IMG/VR virus record: IMGVR_UViG_3300020042_003223
Location: 1 to 31,070 of that record
Source of the DNA: a virus
Lineage: Duplodnaviria > Caudoviricetes
Length of the DNA: 31,070 bases
Strand: one strand, 5' to 3'
Both the position numbers and the translations under genes were made by a program. The notes beneath the pieces are model-generated. The model saw only the letters and a program-made list of their open reading frames with translations. It had not been told where the DNA came from and searched no databases. Positions 1-31,070 of the stretch are shown here, piece by piece (position 1 is the stretch's first letter; each line of letters starts with the position of its first letter).

Positions 1-98
1 TTATTTTGATTCTGTTAATATGTTATCCCGTTATTATATTCGGGAAAACATTAATAGAACATATTAAGAATAAATAAAACTATTAAACACAACACAAC

Positions 99-1373
99 AT
101 GGAAAACACAACACAACAAAAAAGAATTGCATTTAACTCATTGAGGTCAATGTTAATGCTTATCAATTCATCTATTCAAGATGGATATTTAAGACGTGAA
201 TATAAGGATGATAAAATAAATAATTACGAAAATATCATCACCACATATCATGGATATTATGCATTTAAAGATGATTGCATTTTGGCTGAATGTGATTATT
301 TACATGAAACTGAAGATGCAGACGATTATATCTATGACGAAATTGACGAACGATATATTTATGCTGACAATGCAAGTTATGTGGAAACGGGAAGGGACGG
401 ATTCTATACACATGATGACAATTGTTCGGGATGTAATGGAATATATCGTTACAATGATATGTGGATTAATGATGCATACATGGAACGATATGAGTTAGTT
501 CATGATACGCATGGTGACATTAGGAATATAGATGACGTCTATTATTGGGAATCGGATTGCGAATGGCATGATGAACCTGAGGAAAGTAGCGACGAAGATG
601 AAGATGATGATGATGACGATATGGATTCAGCTACAATCAATTCATATTCATACCGACCTTCAATGAAATTTTGTTCACTATCTAATGAGAATTCCAATGC
701 ACCTTTTTTTGGTATTGAATTGGAAGTAGAAAGGAAAAATAGCAAAGGATTGAAGCATAAATATATGGCGGGAATGATTCAGCATGAACATTGGTATTTC
801 AAGACGGACGGAAGTTTAACGGACGGATTCGAAATTGTTACGCACCCAATGACATTCAATTATATTCAACAAAATGAAAAAACATTCACCGATTCCCTGA
901 GATTGTTAGTTGAAAACGGGTATAATAGTTACGACGCAAATACGTGCGGGATGCATATTCACATTAGTAAAAATAATTTCACCACATGGCATTTATATCG
1001 ATTCCTTAAATTCTTTGTAGAAAATAAGGAATTCATTGTGTCTATTTCACAAAGGAAAATGGAAAAATTAAGAAAATGGGCAAACATTGAAGAGGATTCC
1101 GATTCCTCGCTAATTTACAAAGCAAAGAAAAAAGACGGGAATAACGAACGATATGTTGCAATTAACTTACAAAATAAAGCTACATTGGAAATTCGCATAT
1201 TTAGGGGAACATTAAACATAAATTCATTCATGAAAAATATTGAATTTGCACATGCTTTATTCATGTACACAAAAGAGAATAAAGATATTTCATTGGGTGG
1301 ATTCAAATTGTATATTGATTCATCATGTGATTATTCCAATTTAAAAAAATTCATTAACTTAAAAAACTTATAA
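99..1373 (+). CDS. Putative amidoligase (COOH-NH2 ligase, Amidoligase_2-like) with acidic N-terminal extension
   Basis: Motifs FGIELEVE, KTDGSL..GFEIVTHP, CGMHIHIS, RYVAIN, TLEIRIFRGT typical of glutamine-synthetase-fold amidoligases; Asp/Glu/Tyr-rich first ~175 aa. Confidence 0.85.
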   Translation: MENTTQQKRIAFNSLRSMLMLINSSIQDGYLRREYKDDKINNYENIITTYHGYYAFKDDCILAECDYLHETEDADDYIYDEIDERYIYADNASYVETGRDGFYTHDDNCSGCNGIYRYNDMWINDAYMERYELVHDTHGDIRNIDDVYYWESDCEWHDEPEESSDEDEDDDDDDMDSATINSYSYRPSMKFCSLSNENSNAPFFGIELEVERKNSKGLKHKYMAGMIQHEHWYFKTDGSLTDGFEIVTHPMTFNYIQQNEKTFTDSLRLLVENGYNSYDANTCGMHIHISKNNFTTWHLYRFLKFFVENKEFIVSISQRKMEKLRKWANIEEDSDSSLIYKAKKKDGNNERYVAINLQNKATLEIRIFRGTLNINSFMKNIEFAHALFMYTKENKDISLGGFKLYIDSSCDYSNLKKFINLKNL

Positions 1374-1376
1374 ACT

Positions 1377-2111
1377 ATGTGTATTATTGCCATTCAGCCA
1401 TTGGGCGTAAAAATCAAAGAATCAACATTAAAAAATTGTTGGGATGCTAACAAAGACGGGGCGGGAATCATGTACGTTGAAAACGGAAAAATTATTGTCA
1501 ATAAAGAAATGCATTCATTTAATCAATTCATGAAATTGAAAAAACATGCGGACAAAGTGAATTCCAATATCGTCATGCATTTTCGCATTGCAACGTCGGG
1601 CGGTATTAATGACAGAAATTGTCACCCATTTAAGGTAAATAATGACCTATATTTTTGTCATAACGGAATTTTGGATATTGATGTGCCATTGAATTCAAAC
1701 ATTAATGATACGCAAATATTCAATAATTCATTCATGAAAGGATTGCCTGACAATTTTGTGCAAAATGATACGATTATGGGATTGTTAGAATTTACAATAG
1801 GCAACCGAAATAAATTCGTTTTCATGGATGCAACGGGGCAATTTTATATCCTGAATGAGAATGTAGGAAAATGGGATAACGGGGCATGGTACTCGAATGA
1901 AAGTTACAAAAGACAATCTTATTCATATTATCCTACAAAATGGGATTTTTATGGCAAAGAAAAAAAGAACGAAAAATATTCGATTGAGGATAATTTCGAA
2001 TATTGCGAATCATGTAACGAAGTTCATTCATTAGACAATATGGTACATGATAGTTATTTTGATATGTTATTATGTACAAAATGTAGTGAATGGATACTTG
2101 AGGAAAAATAA
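1377..2111 (+). CDS. Class II (Ntn) glutamine amidotransferase with C-terminal CxxC..CxxC zinc ribbon
   Basis: N-terminal Met-Cys nucleophile, NKDGAG, HFRIATSG, NCHPF, FCHNG, NDT motifs; CESC...CTKC at C-terminus; 3 nt after the amidoligase stop. Confidence 0.9.
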   Translation: MCIIAIQPLGVKIKESTLKNCWDANKDGAGIMYVENGKIIVNKEMHSFNQFMKLKKHADKVNSNIVMHFRIATSGGINDRNCHPFKVNNDLYFCHNGILDIDVPLNSNINDTQIFNNSFMKGLPDNFVQNDTIMGLLEFTIGNRNKFVFMDATGQFYILNENVGKWDNGAWYSNESYKRQSYSYYPTKWDFYGKEKKNEKYSIEDNFEYCESCNEVHSLDNMVHDSYFDMLLCTKCSEWILEEK

Positions 2112-2133
2112 TTGTGTGTTTTCTTTTGTGTAT

Positions 2134-2163
2134 GCATGGCCTGAAATATGGCCATGCTTTTTT
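2134..2163 (+). terminator. Intrinsic terminator of amidoligase-GATase operon
   Basis: GCATGGCC-TGAAATAT-GGCCATGC perfect 8-bp stem followed by TTTTTT. Confidence 0.9.
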
Positions 2164-2386
2164 AGTTTATGACCTTATCAATAAATAACGCAAAATAAGA
2201 CGAAATAAGACGATTAAAATTTAAAACAATGGTAATACCTTACAAACATAACAGAAGCCCGTAATTGGGCTAAAAATAGGCAAAGAATTGATTTCTACTT
2301 CGATGTCATGATATGTCATGCAATATCAATCCTTTATTGATGTTGCACCATTGATTGATATGCATGTACTTATCAGTTACCCATGC

Positions 2387-2485
2387 CAAAAACCCGCCAA
2401 AAATCTTCTGTGGTTATAGCCAAAAATCCAGCAAAAACTCCCCAAAAACCTGCCAAAAATCTGTGACAAAAATCTATGACAAAAA
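2387..2485 (+). repeat. Eight CAAAAA units, mostly in 11-bp phase
   Basis: A5 tracts start at 2388, 2399, 2422, 2433, 2444, 2455, 2468, 2481; consensus (G/C/A)CAAAAA(T/C). Confidence 0.9.
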
Positions 2486-2565
2486 CCTTTTTAACAATAA
2501 ATTAACTAAAATAAATTAAATTATAACAAATATTTTATAATTTTACAAAACTAAAACAAAAACAA

Positions 2566-2772
2566 ATGCACCAATTAATTACCTTAACCCATCCAATGAA
2601 GTGTGCCATAACTGGCAAACAGATTGACAAAGGCGAACAAGCCTACTACAATCACGAGACAAAAAACTGCATACATCCACTTGAGTATGAGAAAAACATG
2701 AGTAAAGCTAAGAAAGGCGACCCAAAAACCTACTTTAGTAGATTATCTAAACTAAACACCAAAAATCTTTAG
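2566..2772 (+). CDS. Hypothetical early protein
   Basis: 68 aa ORF with A-rich leader, first of a tightly packed + strand cluster. Confidence 0.65.
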   Translation: MHQLITLTHPMKCAITGKQIDKGEQAYYNHETKNCIHPLEYEKNMSKAKKGDPKTYFSRLSKLNTKNL

Positions 2773-3475: not shown

Positions 3476-3641
3476 ACATGGAGATATGAAGAAAATCTGT
3501 GCTATTACTGGGCTTTCACCATACCTATTAAAGACAAGATTAGATAAGCATGACTACGAGACAGTTGAGATAGTAAAAACTTACTATGCAAACAAGTTAG
3601 AAGCACTTAAAAACCAATTAAATGATTACAGCGAAATTTAG
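3438..3641 (+). CDS. Small putative DNA-binding (HTH-like) protein
   Basis: GDMKKICAITGLSPYLL resembles a helix-turn-helix; overlaps both neighbours. Confidence 0.5.
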   Translation: MMQQPMDYRAMLRHGDMKKICAITGLSPYLLKTRLDKHDYETVEIVKTYYANKLEALKNQLNDYSEI

Positions 3642-3996
3642 AACACCAAGACAAAACCTATTAAAGAGAAAGGATTATTTTGTAGACCAGACAATAGTAG
3701 ATAATGTCATAAATAAAGTAGCTAAAGTTTGCGAGATAAGACCAGAATCAATAGTAAAAAAAGGTAGACATAGAGAACAAGTATTAGCACGAAATATGTG
3801 CTTTTACATTCTTCATGTTCACTATAAACAAAAATCTGCTCAAATTGCTCCTTACTTTAAAAGAGACAGAACTACAGTTTTGCATGGCGTAAACACTTTT
3901 GTAAATGATACAGAAGTATTGCCATTGTATATGGAAAAATATCAACAAGCAAGAAAAAAAATAAAAGTACCTAAATCATATTCAGAAACTAAATAA
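3622..3996 (+). CDS. DnaA C-terminal (domain IV)-like HTH protein
   Basis: R.R..VLARNMCFY...IAPYFKRDRTTVLHG matches the DnaA domain IV signature (RDHTTV.H). Confidence 0.8.
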   Translation: MITAKFRTPRQNLLKRKDYFVDQTIVDNVINKVAKVCEIRPESIVKKGRHREQVLARNMCFYILHVHYKQKSAQIAPYFKRDRTTVLHGVNTFVNDTEVLPLYMEKYQQARKKIKVPKSYSETK

Positions 3997-4006
3997 ACAC
4001 AACACT

Positions 4007-4216
4007 ATGTATTCTACATTCCACCAACTACCAGAGCAAGACAAAAAACTATTTGCAGCTAAGATTTTACACGAGGTAAACTATAGCCAAGAATCTTACA
4101 ACCTAATTAGTAAGTTATTAAACTATTGGGAACATAATCAAATAGTAGAAGCATCTTATTTTAATGAACCAATTAACACAACCAAAAAACTAAAATATGA
4201 GCACAGAACTAACTAA
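4007..4216 (+). CDS. Hypothetical protein
   Basis: 69 aa ORF with AAACACAACACT leader. Confidence 0.6.
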   Translation: MYSTFHQLPEQDKKLFAAKILHEVNYSQESYNLISKLLNYWEHNQIVEASYFNEPINTTKKLKYEHRTN

Positions 4217-4892
4217 TCAACCGAGATTTGATTTAATCAACTCGGATTCGATGCTAAACTTATCAAAAGATTTAGCGAAACTTATCAAAGAAAAAGGATT
4301 GTCAAGCAACATTCAAGGAAAGCAATTTGTTAATGTTGAAGGATGGCAATTCGCTGGAGCTTCTTTAGGGTTAATGCCGATTATCACAGAAACTACGGAC
4401 TTAACTCGAAGAGGCACAGAACCTGGTCAAGTAGAAATTAAGTACATGGCTAAATGCGAAGTACGAAATATTAATACTGGTCAATTAGTAGCTACTGGAG
4501 TAGCAATCTGTAGCAACTTTGAGCATAGTAAAAAGAGATTTGATGAGTACGCAATCTTATCTATGGCACAGACAAGAGCAATCGGTAAGGCGTATCGTAA
4601 CTTACTTGCTTGGTTAATGAAAGCTGCAGGATTCGAAGCTACACCAGCAGAAGAGATGGACTTTGCACCAGCAGAGGCACCTAAAAAACCTTCTCAAACA
4701 GTACAAGAAGTTGTAGCAGAAATAGTAGAAGAAGAAGAAATAGATATTGATGCTATAAAAGCAGAGATTGCTAATTGTACTAAAGTGAAACAATTAACTG
4801 ATTTATACTTTGGCTATAAGCAATTATTTGATTCAAATGAGATGTTAAAAAGATTATTGTCAATGAAAAAAGAAAACCTAACCAAAAAATAA
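4197..4892 (+). CDS. Putative single-strand annealing recombinase (Rad52/Sak/ERF-like superfamily)
   Basis: FVNVEGW, SMAQTRAIGKAYR, TPAEEM motifs, linker and helical C-domain; position in replication module. Confidence 0.6.
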   Translation: MSTELTNQPRFDLINSDSMLNLSKDLAKLIKEKGLSSNIQGKQFVNVEGWQFAGASLGLMPIITETTDLTRRGTEPGQVEIKYMAKCEVRNINTGQLVATGVAICSNFEHSKKRFDEYAILSMAQTRAIGKAYRNLLAWLMKAAGFEATPAEEMDFAPAEAPKKPSQTVQEVVAEIVEEEEIDIDAIKAEIANCTKVKQLTDLYFGYKQLFDSNEMLKRLLSMKKENLTKK

Positions 4893-5363: not shown

Positions 5364-5522
5364 ATGAACCAACCAACAATGAACAATGAGCAGTTTGCTT
5401 TATGGGTAGCTTTAGGTCAAGGCACAGATAGTAAATTATTTGATAGAGCAGATTTAATATTAACTTGGCTTAACAAAGACATCAAAAAACCTTCAACACC
5501 AATTACCCCTAAGAGCAAATAA
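5364..5522 (+). CDS. Hypothetical 52 aa protein, not in ORF track
   Basis: Manual translation MNQPTMNNEQFALWVALGQGTDSKLFDRADLILTWLNKDIKKPSTPITPKSK; starts 1 nt after previous stop. Confidence 0.6.
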   Translation: MNQPTMNNEQFALWVALGQGTDSKLFDRADLILTWLNKDIKKPSTPITPKSK

Positions 5523-5530
5523 AAACCCCT

Positions 5531-5595
5531 ACCACCTCAAGATACAAATATTAAATAACCTGGTAGTAATTTATATAAACTTGGGGTGGTTTTTT
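5531..5595 (+). terminator. Long stem-loop with U-tail (terminator/attenuator or processing stem)
   Basis: ACCACCTCAAG ... CTTGGGGTGGT 11-bp stem (one G-U) around a 38-nt partly paired loop, then T run. Confidence 0.55.
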
Positions 5596-5601
5596 AATCT
5601 T

Positions 5602-5673
5602 ATGACAATAATTTTAAGCATAGCAATCTGGGAGTTTATTAAATGGTTATTTTATAAAATAATGAATAGATAA
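5602..5673 (+). CDS. 23 aa hydrophobic peptide, not in ORF track
   Basis: MTIILSIAIWEFIKWLFYKIMNR; stop is 1 nt before next ATG. Confidence 0.5.
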   Translation: MTIILSIAIWEFIKWLFYKIMNR

Positions 5674-5674
5674 T

Positions 5675-5890
5675 ATGGGATTAGATTTAGAGCCGAGAGG
5701 ATTTGAGAACTCAATAAAAGTTAAAATGATATACCTTGATACAAAAGAAGAAGAGCAGTTTATATCAATAGCAGCAGCAAACAGAAAGACCAACATTAAC
5801 GCACAGACAATACGAGAAGCACTAAACCCACTACAGAAGAAAAGATTTACCTATAACGATAGATTAGTAGTGTTTCGTATTAAAAAATAA
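5675..5890 (+). CDS. NUMOD1-like small DNA-binding protein
   Basis: EEQFISIAAANRKTNINAQTIREAL resembles the NUMOD1 HTH. Confidence 0.55.
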   Translation: MGLDLEPRGFENSIKVKMIYLDTKEEEQFISIAAANRKTNINAQTIREALNPLQKKRFTYNDRLVVFRIKK

Positions 5891-5894
5891 CCTT

Positions 5895-6494
5895 ATGTCT
5901 CAATTTTACACAACAATAATTCATCCTATAAGGAAACACTTTAGCTTGTCTTGTAACGACTACTGCGTATTAGATACGATTATGCGTATGCAGAATAATG
6001 AATCTAACTGGTGCTATATGTCTAAAGATACTATGGCAAACGATTTAGACCTATCAAAACAAGCTGTTCTTAACATAATCACTAAGTTAGTAGAGAAAGA
6101 CCTTATAGTCAAAAATCCAGCCACTAAACACTTACGCATAGCGTCAGTATTTTTAGAGTATTTAAACGATTACAAAAAGTTTACCGATGGTAAAGAAACT
6201 TTACTTGAACGGTCAAAAAACTTTACCGAAACTGGTAAAAAAACTTTACCTAACAATAATACTAACAATAAGAATACATTTATAAGGCCTACGGCTGAAC
6301 AAATAAATGAATATTCTAAGGAAATTGGATTTACTTTAGATGGCTCACAATTTATAGACCATTACGAAGCAAGAGGATGGTTAATCGGTAAAAATCCTAT
6401 GAAGGATTGGAAAGCAGCAGTAAGAACTTGGAAAAGAAATAGTAGAAGTTTTACTACCATTCAAACACAAACAACTAAAATCAGTCTTAAATAA
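5895..6494 (+). CDS. Phage replication initiator (N-terminal wHTH, C-terminal helical domain)
   Basis: WCYMSKDTMANDLDLSKQAV wHTH; FIDHYEARGW..GKNPMKDWKAAVRTW C-domain; internal iterons; stop overlaps dnaB start. Confidence 0.85.
   Translation: MSQFYTTIIHPIRKHFSLSCNDYCVLDTIMRMQNNESNWCYMSKDTMANDLDLSKQAVLNIITKLVEKDLIVKNPATKHLRIASVFLEYLNDYKKFTDGKETLLERSKNFTETGKKTLPNNNTNNKNTFIRPTAEQINEYSKEIGFTLDGSQFIDHYEARGWLIGKNPMKDWKAAVRTWKRNSRSFTTIQTQTTKISLK
6169..6280. repeat. Probable replication origin: four ~17-bp iterons plus AT-rich tract inside initiator gene
   Basis: GGTAAAGAAACTTTACT (6189), GGTCAAAAAACTTTACC (6211), GGTAAAAAAACTTTACC (6234), degenerate copy at 6169; followed by TAACAATAA x2; lambda O-like arrangement. 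Confidence 0.8.
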
Positions 6495-7831
6495 TGGAAT
6501 TAGTAACACTACCGCAGAGCAGAGAGTTAGAGAAAAGCATACTTGGAGCAATATTGATGGATAAAAGAACATTACCATTGGCAGTCGGACACTTAAAAAC
6601 AGAAGTTTTTTATGATTTAGGTCACCAAAAAATCTTTGACATAGTTAAAAAAATGTATGATGATGGAGTCTATGTAGACATAACTACCCTAAACCAAAAA
6701 CTTAAAGATGATGAGGCTTACAAAGAGTTAGGAGGTGCGTTTTACTTGACAAAGTTAACTGATAATGTAACTGGTTTGCACAATTTCAATACCCATATTG
6801 AGATGCTTATTGAGGTTTATAAGAAAAGAGAAGCATTTATGTTATTTAAGCAAAGCGAATATGAATGCTTAGACAATGATAGTCAAGCTATAGATTTACT
6901 TTCTGCAGTTAATACCAAGCTAATTAGCCTACAAGAGTATGGAAATATCCATGAAAAGACAATAACAGATGTCATTTTATCGTTAAACTATTCAAGAGAT
7001 AAGGCACAAAATGGTGAGTTATTAGGTTATGATACTGGTTTTAAGGAACTGAATAACACATTAGCTGGATGGTGCCGACCAGACTTTGTAGTTATTGCTG
7101 CAAGACCAGGAATGGGTAAGACAGCTTTCATGCTTTCAAGTATTTACCACCTATGTATATCAAATATGATTCCTACGGCCATTTTTAGCCTCGAAATGAG
7201 CTCCGAACAGTTAGTTGAAAGGTTAGAGTCAATTACGAGTGAGATACCCTTAAAACGTCTTAGAATGAATAATTTGAATGATGCAGAAAGAAAGATACTA
7301 CTAAAAACTGATGATAAGATATTACTTTCCCCTCTACATATTGAAGATATGGGCGGTATAAGTATTTCGCAACTTAGAGCAAAGGCAACCATTATGAAGC
7401 AGAAGTATGGCATTAAAGTCATCTTTATCGACTACCTACAGCTTATGAGTGGACAAGGCAAAAACAACCAAAACCGAGAGCAGGAGGTGAGTTTAATAAG
7501 CAGAAGCCTTAAATCCTTAGCAAAAGAGTTACAAGTACCGATTATCGCCCTATCTCAATTATCTCGTAGAGTAGAGGAAAGAGGAGATAAGATGCCACAA
7601 TTATCTGACCTAAGAGAATCTGGTTCTATTGAGCAAGATGCTGATGCAGTTATTATGTTAATGAGGCCTAATTACTATGAGATGACAAACCCAATAGAGA
7701 TTGGTGGAACAGAATATGCTACAAACGATTTAGTTATCTGTAAGGTTGAGAAGAATAGACATGGCACAACAAAAAACTTGCCGCTTAGATTTTTACCAGA
7801 GACAATGACATTTATTGACTATACAAATTAA
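6494..7831 (+). CDS. dnaB: Replicative DNA helicase (DnaB family)
   Basis: AARPGMGKT Walker A, FSLEMS, IDYLQLM, LSQLSR, SDLRESGSIEQDAD, KNRHG. Confidence 0.97.
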   Translation: MELVTLPQSRELEKSILGAILMDKRTLPLAVGHLKTEVFYDLGHQKIFDIVKKMYDDGVYVDITTLNQKLKDDEAYKELGGAFYLTKLTDNVTGLHNFNTHIEMLIEVYKKREAFMLFKQSEYECLDNDSQAIDLLSAVNTKLISLQEYGNIHEKTITDVILSLNYSRDKAQNGELLGYDTGFKELNNTLAGWCRPDFVVIAARPGMGKTAFMLSSIYHLCISNMIPTAIFSLEMSSEQLVERLESITSEIPLKRLRMNNLNDAERKILLKTDDKILLSPLHIEDMGGISISQLRAKATIMKQKYGIKVIFIDYLQLMSGQGKNNQNREQEVSLISRSLKSLAKELQVPIIALSQLSRRVEERGDKMPQLSDLRESGSIEQDADAVIMLMRPNYYEMTNPIEIGGTEYATNDLVICKVEKNRHGTTKNLPLRFLPETMTFIDYTN

Positions 7832-7834
7832 CCT

Positions 7835-8062
7835 ATGACATCAAAAGAAAAAGCATTTGATTTAATAAGATTATACAGAAACATTGAATTTGATAATGGT
7901 GAAAATTGTTATTTAATGATTTCAATGAAAAACGCTAAACAATGTGCATTAATAGCAGTAGATGAGATAATAAAATGTGTAAATAATCCAGATGAGTATT
8001 ATTTAATGGAATATTCAATATTTTATTGGCAAGAAGTTAAAAAAGAAATAGAAGCATTATAG
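7835..8062 (+). CDS. Hypothetical phage protein
   Basis: 75 aa, AKQCALIAVDEI...YWQEVKKEIE; very AT-rich. Confidence 0.7.
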   Translation: MTSKEKAFDLIRLYRNIEFDNGENCYLMISMKNAKQCALIAVDEIIKCVNNPDEYYLMEYSIFYWQEVKKEIEAL

Positions 8063-8434
8063 ATGGGTAAGCATAATGGCTATAGGAACAGACGTAAATT
8101 CGAGATAGAAGAGGCTCGTAATGCTGATGGTACCTATCAAGCTATTAAGTTGTTTGCTAAGAACACTAAGATTTTAGTAATACAAATGCCTACAGCATTA
8201 TTAGATGGTTTTATGTGGTTAGAATATGAGAGAGATGGTCAGCCTTCTGGTATAGCTGATACAAGAGTTGAGTTCTTTGCTATTAACTTTGATTTAAGGA
8301 ATAGGATATACTTTATGAGGTCAGAATTGCTTAGAAAAAAGGCTCGTAGGTACTTTAGAGTCAACTTAACTAAGGTCGAAAATAACGTCAAATATGTCCA
8401 AGTTCCAGTAGATGAGATGATTCGTTATGTATAA
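8063..8434 (+). CDS. Hypothetical protein, possibly degenerate PD-(D/E)XK fold
   Basis: EYERDGQPSGIADT resembles a phage restriction-fold family motif; E-x-K catalytic motif not visible. Confidence 0.55.
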   Translation: MGKHNGYRNRRKFEIEEARNADGTYQAIKLFAKNTKILVIQMPTALLDGFMWLEYERDGQPSGIADTRVEFFAINFDLRNRIYFMRSELLRKKARRYFRVNLTKVENNVKYVQVPVDEMIRYV

Positions 8435-8451
8435 TATATGTAAATAAATTG

Positions 8452-8459
8452 TAACTTTG
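8452..8459 (+). promoter_or_regulatory. Bacteroidota sigma-A -7 element
   Basis: TAACTTTG (TAnnTTTG) in intergenic gap, 4 nt before ATG of 8464 (possibly leaderless mRNA). Confidence 0.55.
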
Positions 8460-8463
8460 ATTT

Positions 8464-8844
8464 ATGGCAACATATAAAACAGCTTCCGAGCTGACCAAAA
8501 TGATGATTGATTATTTAGGACATAGAGGGATGGAAGTATGGAGAAATAATAACCTTGCTGTAAAAGGAAGGGCATTTATTGGGAGGAAAGGAGTTCCAGA
8601 TATTATAGGTTATGATAGGAAACATGGTCAGTTTGTAGGATGCGAGATTAAGAAGTTAGGTGATAGGATTAGCCCAGAGCAGTTGACTTTTTTAACTCAG
8701 TTAGGATTAGCAGGAGGAGCAGCAATGTTATGTAGCCAGACATCAGATGAAACAATAAAATTAGAAATATTTAAAGATGGCGAAAGTAAAATCTGGAAGT
8801 GGAACGAGTCAAAAAAAGAGTTTTGGCAAGAGGAAAATAGGTAG
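8464..8844 (+). CDS. VRR-NUC domain nuclease / Holliday junction resolvase
   Basis: GVPDIIG...FVGCEIK...ISPEQLTFL PD-(D/E)XK VRR-NUC pattern. Confidence 0.85.
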   Translation: MATYKTASELTKMMIDYLGHRGMEVWRNNNLAVKGRAFIGRKGVPDIIGYDRKHGQFVGCEIKKLGDRISPEQLTFLTQLGLAGGAAMLCSQTSDETIKLEIFKDGESKIWKWNESKKEFWQEENR

Positions 8845-18247: not shown

Positions 18248-18880
18248 TTAATTAATTATAATCTTATTTTGTCTTCTTAGTCTTTTAAAGTGACCATAAC
18301 TTATTCCCATCTTCACACTTGCCTCTAATCTACTCTCAAATTCTCCCACAAATGTACCATTATCTCTATAAACCATACATCGCTTTTTAAGATTGTCATT
18401 ACCTCTTAATATAGCAGATTCTGACATTTTCTTTTTAGCCTCTTCACTTACTATCTTGCCTTTTTGAGCTTTTGCGTAAGTATTACCTATCATCCTTTTT
18501 CTTATAAGATTTACCTCATTTTCTGTCTTTGGTCTACCCATACCAGCCAATGATATCTTTTTTTTAGTCTCTTCAGAATGTTTAGTATTTAAACCACCTG
18601 GTCTAATGTTATATCCGAAGTTTCTATCTGTTGCTCTTAGAATCTTAATGAACTGCTCTTCGTAAAGATTAAGACTTTCTAAGTCATCAGTTTTTAAGAT
18701 GGTATAGAACATAAAGGAATCTATGCCATGTTTGTTAAAAGAACGCTGAAGGTACTCGTTGTCGTGAGTACCTTTCTTTAGCCTTTGAGTATGGTAACCA
18801 AACCTTATCTCTGGCTTATTAATTGTTTGTCCGATATAAGCCTTCCCAGTATTCTTGTTCAGTATCTTATATAAGTACAT
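18248..18880 (-). CDS. Free-standing GIY-YIG homing endonuclease with NUMOD3/NUMOD1 motifs
   Basis: YLY-x10-YIGQT, HSEETKKKIS and SEEAKKKMSES repeats, C-terminal GEFES..EAS. Confidence 0.9.
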   Translation of the reverse strand: MYLYKILNKNTGKAYIGQTINKPEIRFGYHTQRLKKGTHDNEYLQRSFNKHGIDSFMFYTILKTDDLESLNLYEEQFIKILRATDRNFGYNIRPGGLNTKHSEETKKKISLAGMGRPKTENEVNLIRKRMIGNTYAKAQKGKIVSEEAKKKMSESAILRGNDNLKKRCMVYRDNGTFVGEFESRLEASVKMGISYGHFKRLRRQNKIIIN

Positions 18881-29299: not shown

Positions 29300-30436
29300 C
29301 TACACTACCCAACCCCTTTTCGGTTTGGCAAATTTTGAGTATATGGCATACCTCATGGCATCCATCAAGTGGTCTCTAAACTTAACTGGTTCATCCAAAG
29401 TATTGCCATCGTTATCGGTTTTCCATTTATAGTTTTTAAACTCATCCAACAAATCTAAGGAATCGCTTTTAACTATCAGCGGAAATGACTTTACTTTGTT
29501 AATACCAGCAAAAACATCTTTAACGGCAGGTTTAAGGCTAAATCCAGCCTTATTAATCTCAGCTATGGTCTTGGGTTCAGCGGCATCAGCGAATATCTCA
29601 GTTCGCTTGTCAAAGCCAAAAGACTTTAACCTATCGATAAGTAGTGATGTAGACATTTTAGTTTCGTAGATGAGTTGCTCCACAAACATCTCATTGTCGA
29701 AGTGTTTGATTCGCACCAGTGCGGTTTGATTGTTGTAGCCAAAATCCAGTCCATAAAATATTTCCCCTCCTTCTGGGAAGTTTCGTCTGCGTTTCCAATG
29801 GGTATAAATAGTTGCTTCTGATATTGCTCTTTCACCTAAACCATAAACTCTCCAATATTCATGGTCGGCATCCTTTAGTCTCTCAATCTCCTCCACCAAA
29901 GATTTGTCAAGGAATGGATTGTCTTTGTAGGTAGTGATGGTAAAGTCCGCATCTTCTCTGGTAATTACCTTGTCATATATCCAAGAGTAGTAATCTGAAG
30001 GGTTATAGTCAATTACAATCTTATCTGTGGTTCTTAGGGCTAACTGCATCCAAGATTCGTAGTTTACCTCGTTGGCCTCGTTAATAAACAGATAGTTTCT
30101 TTTACGGCCTCTTATTTTTTGTGGCTGGTCTGTAGAGACAAACTCTACGGTGTTGCCTCCTAAGAAGTAAAGATTTTCTGACTTGTTGTGCTTTTCTTCT
30201 GAGTATAGGCCATATTTCGACAGAATTTCTATAAAGTCTCTCATTACTGAGCCTTTTATGGATGGCAACGATGAACGGCAGATAGTTAGTGTCTTCCCTT
30301 TTTCTTGTAACAATTTTACGATAAACCAGGTCAATACATTGTAGGTTTTGCCAGACCTTGTTCCGCCTTGCATAACAGATATTTTTTTTTGGCTGTTTTG
30401 CAGTATTTCGAAAACGATGTTGGTGGTTACGTTCAT
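29300..30436 (-). CDS. terL: Terminase large subunit, PBSX family
   Basis: QGGTRSGKT Walker A, FINEANE Walker B, GLDFGY and DHLMDAMRYA nuclease motifs. Confidence 0.95.
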   Translation of the reverse strand: MNVTTNIVFEILQNSQKKISVMQGGTRSGKTYNVLTWFIVKLLQEKGKTLTICRSSLPSIKGSVMRDFIEILSKYGLYSEEKHNKSENLYFLGGNTVEFVSTDQPQKIRGRKRNYLFINEANEVNYESWMQLALRTTDKIVIDYNPSDYYSWIYDKVITREDADFTITTYKDNPFLDKSLVEEIERLKDADHEYWRVYGLGERAISEATIYTHWKRRRNFPEGGEIFYGLDFGYNNQTALVRIKHFDNEMFVEQLIYETKMSTSLLIDRLKSFGFDKRTEIFADAAEPKTIAEINKAGFSLKPAVKDVFAGINKVKSFPLIVKSDSLDLLDEFKNYKWKTDNDGNTLDEPVKFRDHLMDAMRYAIYSKFAKPKRGWVV

Positions 30437-30538: not shown

Positions 30539-31069
30539 TTACTCCTCAAACTCATCTTGGTCGTTCATATCTAACAACTCACCCTTATCATGGTCATATA
30601 ATGGAATCTCTGGTATCTCGGAAGCCAATGTGGCTGGAACAGTAAAGCTGTTATCTTTCTGAGTATCGAAGTTCATTATATTCTCATCTCCATCGAGCTG
30701 CTTGTGCAAGTTAGGTAATTCCGATGTCTTCACTACGTTCACCGTAATCTGCTTCACCACATCTCCTTCATGAGCCACCTCAGTCTTTTCAATGTACCCT
30801 CTTCTCTTGCCCTTAGTTTTAAGTAAGAACATGGTTGCCAAAGTATCACCCTTAGTAATCCTCTCCATCAACTTGTGCTCCCCCCAATCAAGCATAATCT
30901 CTTCTGGCTCTATCTCAGCTAATGCCTTCTTAAACTCATTATCATTCTTCATCCAATTCTGATACATAGTCCTACTAATCCCACATGCTTGACAAGCAAT
31001 GGTAATATTTCCAAAATTCTCCCTATAAGCAATGATAAATGCTTCTTTCGTTATATCCTTAAACTCTGC
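30539..31069 (-). CDS. terS: Terminase small subunit (5' end beyond window)
   Basis: Frame stays open to window edge, adding AEFKDITKEAFIIAYRENFGNITIACQACGISRT (HTH) before MYQNW; ATMFLLKTKGKRRGY motif; upstream of terL. Confidence 0.85.
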   Translation of the reverse strand, partial: AEFKDITKEAFIIAYRENFGNITIACQACGISRTMYQNWMKNDNEFKKALAEIEPEEIMLDWGEHKLMERITKGDTLATMFLLKTKGKRRGYIEKTEVAHEGDVVKQITVNVVKTSELPNLHKQLDGDENIMNFDTQKDNSFTVPATLASEIPEIPLYDHDKGELLDMNDQDEFEE

Positions 31070-31070
31070 G

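Follow-up and report, generated by a model that had tools for sequence, protein, structure and literature searches.

The first 2.4 kb of the window, by which we mean the whole 31,070-nucleotide contig IMGVR_UViG_3300020042_003223 of a lake phage, are strongly depleted of the dinucleotide AG and its complement CT, above all of CAG and GAG (together SAG, S being C or G). The depleted zone carries a cassette of two genes, encoding an amidoligase and a class II glutamine amidotransferase-like hydrolase (GATase), and lies in an exchangeable cargo slot of the related phages. Cargo and position both contribute to the depletion: a mild deficit, to about 0.8 of expectation, starts at a G-rich landmark whatever the cargo is, and most of the depth comes from the amidoligase cassette. 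We propose, with an about even chance of being right, that the leading end of the genome avoids a diverse and shifting pool of asymmetric N6-methyladenine (m6A) sites of the Type IIG kind, which is read as loss of the SAG core. The proposal is built on the deficit itself, on SAG as its core, on its polarity towards the 5' side, on the fixed landmark where it starts and on its persistence in alleles that are nearly saturated with synonymous changes. It takes up an earlier sequence-only reading of the window, which had seen there a first-injected segment purged of host restriction sites and whose interpretation is partly supported by the results described below.

The AG/CT deficit is real and withstands controls for amino acid composition and codon junctions. 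The hand counts for the zone at 1 to about 2400 were reproduced to within one: 7 CT and 16 AG at positions 1381-1980, 12 CT and 20 AG (about 19 by hand) at 1-600, and 34 CT and 59 AG at 4201-4800. Strand-symmetric rho(AG) was 0.33-0.67 in the eight counting intervals starting at 1-2101 and 0.93-1.50 in every later interval. When the amino acids were kept and the codons resampled from elsewhere in the genome, AG remained low in the amidoligase (z=-5.7) and GATase (z=-4.4) genes, as did CT in the two zone genes (z=-5.4 and -4.5). The shift towards AG-free codons was recovered as well, GAA, CAA and AAA together with TTA and TTG being preferred in the cassette. This preference would suit an optimization of codons for fast early translation, as is reported for plasmid leading regions in the accessible part of PMC13478746. 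However, the deficit is equal at codon junctions, where the two genes hold 31 AG against 60 expected and 10 CT against 27 expected, and is no weaker on the opposite strand or outside the genes, and the major capsid gene is rich in CT (89 vs 65), which makes codon optimization an extremely improbable cause.

What is lost is mainly the SAG core. Both strands of the zone together contain 25 SAG where 63 are expected, i.e. about 60% of CAG/GAG are missing, and the backbone contains 1163 where 1086 are expected (observed/expected ratio, O/E, 1.07). WAG (W being A or T) is reduced more mildly, with 79 observed of 115 expected, and AGG is spared. Across 11 alleles the O/E values were 0.32 for GAG, 0.45 for CAG, 0.61 for TAG, 0.79 for AAG and 1.12 for AGG; in the window, each of the four SAG-core triplets stands at 0.30-0.48 of the backbone level, in frame and out of frame. 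The loss is also polar. Within 14 family cassettes, SAG O/E was 0.73, 0.29, 0.17 and 0.26 with 0, 1, 2 and 3 G/C among the three upstream bases but flat (0.37-0.45) with respect to downstream G/C. Each of the three allele clades shows this upstream gradient, as does the window by itself, and it is much steeper there than the backbone baseline (1.16, 1.14, 0.94). Non-amidoligase cargo has the same 5' polarity in a weak form (1.01, 0.80, 0.75 and 0.77 with 0-3 upstream G/C), and SAT and SAA in clade A are without an upstream gradient. A loss of SAG that deepens with upstream, not downstream, G/C has the shape expected of asymmetric m6A sites ending in SAG, the class of target that the sequence-only reading had suspected; its context specificity, with SAG more affected than WAG and AGG spared, had been missed, as had the absence of CG depletion from the zone. 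In Blow 2016 (Table S4), the methylated A is followed by G in 56 of 108 m6A motifs, and 31 motifs read SAG, 17 AAG and 2 TAG, in a tally made by eye of the first 118 of the 133 IIG rows. According to the accessible text of PMC2731913, the common feature of MmeI-family sites is only a penultimate methylated A. No single long motif emerged as the target: SAG-containing 4- and 5-mers are reduced in large number, and which of them are affected varies by clade. In one clade of amidoligase cassettes (L096-L102; L numbers denote loci of the comparison), 5-mers containing CATC/GATG are avoided too and CG is two-fold enriched at codon junctions.

A local mutational bias without selection, as might act on a terminal segment that is transiently single-stranded or differently repaired, would hit both strands and produce a positional boundary, and both are seen. 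That the loss depends on upstream G/C, at a distance of two to four bases, and not on downstream G/C is hard to obtain from mutation, however, and the depth of the deficit varies by cargo at the same position. We therefore regard a purely mutational origin as very unlikely.

Change points were located at 2611 (2566-2679) for AG/CT and at 2373 (2312-2666) for SAG, so that the depletion ends within or just past the non-coding element at 2134-2560, as had been noted earlier, and the border of the AG/CT deficit falls at about 2.3-2.7 kb. CT alone changes at 2096 and CG at 2018. The zone does not share the CG depletion seen elsewhere in the genome, its rho(CG) being 1.03-1.32 vs mostly 0.2-0.9 outside it. 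The zone, its genes and the borders of the slot are as follows:

1-2400, no strand: SAG-depleted zone, not CG-depleted; in relatives it extends left past the contig end
99-1373, plus strand: amidoligase (PF12224) whose acidic N-terminal domain belongs to no named family; SAG 17 observed, 41 expected
1377-2111, plus strand: class II glutamine amidotransferase-like hydrolase (PF13230) with N-terminal Cys; SAG 8 observed, 21 expected
2134-2163, plus strand: intrinsic-terminator-like hairpin and T run at the end of the cassette (z=-3.4)
2385-2490, no strand: phased A-tract repeats with 11-nucleotide spacing, which follow most slot types
2538-2545, plus strand: promoter-like motif ahead of the core early operon, marked by sequence conservation
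2566-2772, plus strand: first conserved core early gene, the right border of the slot; AG back to the backbone level
29300-30436, minus strand: terminase large subunit (terL; PF04466, TIGR01547, PBSX family), SAG-normal
30539-31070, minus strand: terminase small subunit (terS), truncated by the contig end; in relatives it bounds the slot on the left

The window lacks about 1 kb that lies between terS and position 1 and includes the G-rich landmark. In relatives, the interval from terS to the gene at 2566 is an exchangeable cargo slot of 2.6-4.5 kb. We compared 46 distinct slots with about 80 protein clusters; 10 slots contain the amidoligase-GATase pair and 36 other cargo, including Gp88, a TreK-like protein and C5 methyltransferases. 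Because an amidoligase query was used to retrieve the amidoligase slots, 10 of 46 is not a frequency; the pooled alleles are related, so that pooled counts overstate independence. Locus L082, seemingly not a member of the family, was left out of the position bins for coding SAG and of the cargo pool for the four-triplet/cassette comparison but kept in the slot counts, the A-tract results, the cargo pool that yielded 0.83, the fine landmark bins, and the G/C-polarity and backbone-palindrome results.

Rho(AG) was 0.47-0.62 in all 10 amidoligase slots and 0.74-1.17 in the other slots. The landmark, upstream of terS and about 0.7 kb ahead of the amidoligase gene, was located in 39 of the 46 slots (10 amidoligase, 29 other), and in both slot types raw SAG O/E fell from 0.93-0.95 on its left to 0.50-0.51 in the first 400 nucleotides on its right. 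In genomes without the amidoligase, coding SAG was 0.81-0.84 over the first 2 kb and 1.05-1.16 towards terS. The corresponding place in a sister family (27 loci) gave 0.67-0.78, the terS-proximal genes there being low too (0.83). Position alone was rejected as the whole account because the depth varies between cargo at the same position, SAG O/E being 0.45-0.49 in the amidoligase cassette vs 0.83 pooled in other cargo. The mild start at the landmark is seen with either kind of cargo, and most of the depth belongs to the cassette. In several unrelated phages (L132, L292/L298, L120, L126, L125), the depletion reaches into small genes nearby; in L132, L298 and L125, for which the flank is available, it fades downstream. 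A near-palindromic 14-nucleotide motif occurs, sometimes in tandem, beside the landmark and downstream of the cassette (2342-2355 in the window, 7647-7700 in L004, and right of the landmark in several slots); it is a possible operator or exchange site.

All 25 distinct cassettes of the family are deep, with SAG O/E of 0.14-0.68. By comparison, the median of 197 amidoligase cassettes from outside the family is 1.04, with 191 of them at 0.7 or above and 6 below, and no SAG dip was seen at the amidoligases of MEP401, Manatee Spring phage and Marvin. Since the non-family cassettes are mostly normal, the idea that the deficit follows amidoligases everywhere was rejected, and with it the simple transfer signature that the sequence-only reading had raised against its own interpretation. 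The amidoligase-GATase pair is widespread among the loci fetched. Alleles of the family differ at 29-74% of four-fold sites and are still depleted; 26 alleles hold 181 distinct SAG positions, with a mean of 23 per allele and none in at least 80% of the alleles. The deficit does not decay with divergence, alleles with 51-60% protein identity being equally or more depleted (0.14-0.66). Each of the 26 full-length alleles from IMG/VR with at least 51% identity occupies the same slot of the same family. A deficit that is kept near synonymous saturation, in alleles that all sit in one slot, argues for an ongoing local force that maintains it, unless the divergence arose in an unseen donor pool.

According to our proposal, selection against host sites of Type IIG, I, III or bacteriophage exclusion (BREX)-like systems that end in S-m6A-G would remove CAG and GAG from the slot. 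The landmark would be a fixed genome end and packaging would run away from the slot, which would consequently leave the capsid first. If the enzymes switch specificity often, purging their common three-letter core would pay, which the purging of single sites would not. Later DNA would be spared if the restriction enzymes are blunted by a slot-encoded product or by a rapid takeover, and the amidoligase cassette would owe its greater depth to long residence in the slot, in contrast to the turnover of other cargo. Transcription may set the pace of entry; a hard stop like that of T5 would not be needed and is not shown. The slot is likely the first-entering DNA, a predicted order of entry to which the ends of the genome speak as follows. 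The sharp composition step at the landmark in the 39 slots and the normal SAG in terS and terL fit a fixed end better. Contigs from four runs cross the landmark without molecule ends, and the contigs of relatives end at scattered places upstream of terS, with no position in common.

A compositional counterpart is the DNA that T5 injects in its first step, where SAG is 236/327 in the genes before and 414/416 in those after the stop. In the terminal repeat of phage My1, GAG is at 0.32-0.63 vs 0.99-1.38 elsewhere, on both strands and out of frame too, and the upstream polarity is seen. In both genomes (L324 1-9200 for T5, L325 1-11600 for My1), GAG/CTC is at about half the expected level on both strands and normal past the terminal repeat. 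The loss of GAG/CTC from both strands, bounded by the terminal repeat in T5, is thus common to the leading DNA of T5/Tequintavirus and the predicted leading DNA of the window phage. The latter differs from T5 in having lost both CAG and GAG, more deeply, and in being a 34-kb HK97-fold siphophage with a PBSX-family terminase and no A1/A2-like gene among its annotated proteins; no PHROG or Pfam match to A1/A2-like genes was found among 47 window and 50 cargo proteins. In T5, GCG/CGC is moreover more abundant in the first-step DNA (1.97 vs 0.81). At the boundary of the zone lie the terminator, the 14-nucleotide repeats and the phased A-tracts, which are candidates for a stop signal; T5-type variable cargo, according to the accessible part of bioRxiv 866236, ends in a repeat-rich non-coding region. 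Higher correlations of the compositional shifts (0.60 and 0.81), those with T5 among them, were discounted after controls with raw profiles, because the same term is subtracted on both sides and values of 0.45-0.51 were also reached by 3 of 27 control blocks from the backbone. Hence, the segment resembles the T5 first-step region in composition, whereas membership in that class and two-step injection are not shown.

Restriction studies point to a particular weight of early DNA. In T5-like phages, as described in the available text of PMC10644984, sites in the leading segment weigh more than later ones and decide the sensitivity to Type I/II systems. In Murciavirus, early-region sites decide Type I sensitivity, as revealed by escape mutants; there, too, the first-entering region is variable and the decisive motif holds GAG with a methylated A (PMC12455610, accessible portion). 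Murciavirus is a T7-like phage in which one named site is concerned, whereas in the window phage a whole class of sites has seemingly been purged by its three-letter core. Genome-wide site avoidance (PMC6286503) has its counterpart in the palindromes purged from the backbone; relative to the accessible part of that study, the SAG signal differs in being regional and at the level of a common core.

Several results weigh against leading-end avoidance. As described above, the depth of the deficit belongs mainly to the amidoligase cassette and not to position. One imported cargo pair is without a SAG deficit (1.16 and 1.05), which means that the purge is not obligatory. This two-gene cargo (L033, 5222-7781) encodes a 537-residue protein with an acidic C-terminal region, which has no significant similarity to the amidoligase, and an M42-like peptidase; its CG is extremely low (0.08-0.13) and its SAG is not, so that it is probably a recent import. 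No leading deficit was found in the early genes of T7, the SPO1 repeat, the right end of HK97 or phage 11b. Raw trinucleotide profiles correlate at only 0.37 with T5 first-step DNA and at only 0.29 with other cargo. GAGG-type motifs figure in the IIG list, yet two of the three clades spare AGG, and L298/L292 show no clear polarity of SAG loss. The PBSX-family terminase argues for headful packaging, which would blur the leading end, since we take terminases of this family to be mostly headful. According to the accessible text of PMC12455610, early-region avoidance should not apply to headful phages; in that of PMC6286503, Type I/IIG site avoidance is not seen genome-wide, and in that of PMC13478746, plasmid leading regions show no systematic target depletion.

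The palindromes also speak against it. The backbone (2566-31070) is entirely without GATC, GCGC, CGCG, AAGCTT, GAATTC, CAATTG, CATATG and ACAGG, and CTAG and TCAGG are nearly absent. The window cassette has four GAATTC (689, 1029, 1559, 1691) vs none of 8 expected in the backbone and four TCAGG/CCTGA vs 1 of 37, and the cassettes of 12 relatives contain 136 GCGC and CGCG, with 4 in the remaining DNA of these loci. GATC and CCGG are missing from the window cassette too. The segment is thus not free of restriction sites in general: GAATTC, GCGC and CGCG, lost from the backbone, are retained in it. With 0-2 each of GCGC, CGCG and GAATTC in 21 other cargo clusters, only the amidoligase cassette escapes the purge. 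A segment that is merely more exposed should not be exempt from it, and this is the main support for an alternative in which the amidoligase-GATase pair alters the defences that are met, by protection from palindromic Type II enzymes, a shift in host range or DNA modification at SAG, and in which only the DNA permanently linked to the pair records the change. The uniform depth of the 25 family cassettes and the acidic N-terminal domain peculiar to the clade agree with such a regime. It does not account for the non-coding leader and the non-amidoligase cargo, which have the same polarity without the cassette, for the mostly normal amidoligase cassettes elsewhere, or for the backbone, which lacks even a partial SAG loss; moreover, the amidoligase has a peptide/amide ligase fold with no DNA-binding match. 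We consider such a regime unlikely, but it can coexist with leading-end avoidance and would explain the extra depth. A phage C5 methyltransferase as the reason for the GCGC/CGCG loss from the backbone, the cassette being exempt as never linked to it, is weakened by the presence of the same methyltransferase family in amidoligase loci L096, L097 and L099. Avoidance of GATC, AAGCTT, ACAGG and TCAGG varies between sub-lineages, which hints at different hosts.

The last point that counts against leading-end avoidance is Flavobacterium phage FpV9 (L328, KT876725.1), which is SAG-poor genome-wide, with O/E of 0.12-0.43 in 14 of 15 bins and 0.78 in the bin of the gene at 5444-8755. Its profile correlates at 0.68 with that of the window cassette. 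Donor-like genomes thus exist, and the cassette could be a relic, imported perhaps repeatedly from SAG-poor phages and not yet ameliorated. The retained palindromes would fit a foreign origin, and parsimony yields more SAG gains than losses on the tips (141 vs 41); however, the method overcounts gains of rare states and did not separate amelioration from selection. Arguing against this possibility are the differences of FpV9 from the cassette in TAG (0.22), AGG (0.31), polarity, of which it has little, and CATG, of which it has 2 where 280 are expected vs 23 in the window cassette; its GAG is 0.18, and CGCG is absent where 132 are expected. In addition, all 26 alleles sit in the same slot, no donor genome with the same signature was found among 222 distinct cassettes (with 16 of the 64 parts of the metagenome collection scanned), and the deficit persists near synonymous saturation and begins in common non-coding DNA. 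An import relic is therefore unlikely.

A wider claim is tentative and, taken as a whole, doubtful: phages for which IIG/I/BREX sites switch too fast to be removed one by one would purge the SAG core common to these sites, solely in first-entering DNA. The amidoligase-GATase pair would act early, against restriction or on host range, and in its own DNA would be registered both the sites that escape its block (SAG) and those that it blocks (GCGC, CGCG, GAATTC). No match to anti-restriction families was found in Pfam, PHROGs and NCBIfam (PADLOC was not searched). If leading-end avoidance is true, regional avoidance at the level of a core would explain why genome-scale avoidance of Type I/IIG sites was reported absent in the accessible part of PMC6286503. 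It would also provide a cheap marker, from sequence only, of the entry end and polarity of uncultured phages, present in T5-like phages and in uncultured small siphophages, and a first hint at the function of a gene pair that is common in phages and has no known substrate. In the literature covered, from which most subscription papers were missing, the idea of a leading region was found, but neither an AG or SAG deficit nor the GAG/CTC loss from the first-step DNA of T5 and My1.

The predicted structure of the amidoligase (predicted local distance difference test score, pLDDT, 82) has a fold like that of glutamine synthetase, YbdK and PafA, and the conserved ExE, E, H-x-H and E-x-R residues of PF12224 are present. 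The GATase gene adjoins it, with the N-terminal Cys kept. Adjacent PF12224 and PF13230 genes and the glutamine synthetase-like fold are shared with the Amidoligase_2 and class II GATase pairs of other phages; the family is distinguished by the clade-specific acidic N-terminal domain, whose structural look-alikes are solely unnamed viral proteins and for which an atlas feature search gave no usable match, and by the strong SAG deficit, found in only 6 of the 197 non-family cassettes.

The window is a whole contig of an HK97-fold siphophage whose near-complete relatives measure about 34 kb. The best cultured matches of its capsid and terminase are phages of Flavobacterium, Cellulophaga and Bacteroides (34-37%), and relatives with a recorded habitat come mainly from freshwater or aquatic samples, for which reasons the predicted host is likely a member of the Bacteroidota. 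The motif at 2538-2545 presumably corresponds to the Bacteroidota-type promoter consensus, as which we also take the TTTR...TAnnTTTR motif that precedes the first slot gene in all eight slots checked (L002, L004, L009, L015, L030, L034, L053, L086); a promoter scan gave no excess (24 vs 25.7 in shuffles). The A-tracts are reduced in some slots, and an origin, bent promoter DNA or an entry pause are candidate roles for them. A stand-alone protein with the C-terminal helix-turn-helix of DnaA (PF08299) is encoded in the early operon (3622-3996), 1.1 kb from the A-tract array, and is predicted to be a possible A-tract binder. A homing endonuclease gene (18248-18880; one of its profile matches is GIY-YIG) lies between the tail terminator and major tail genes.

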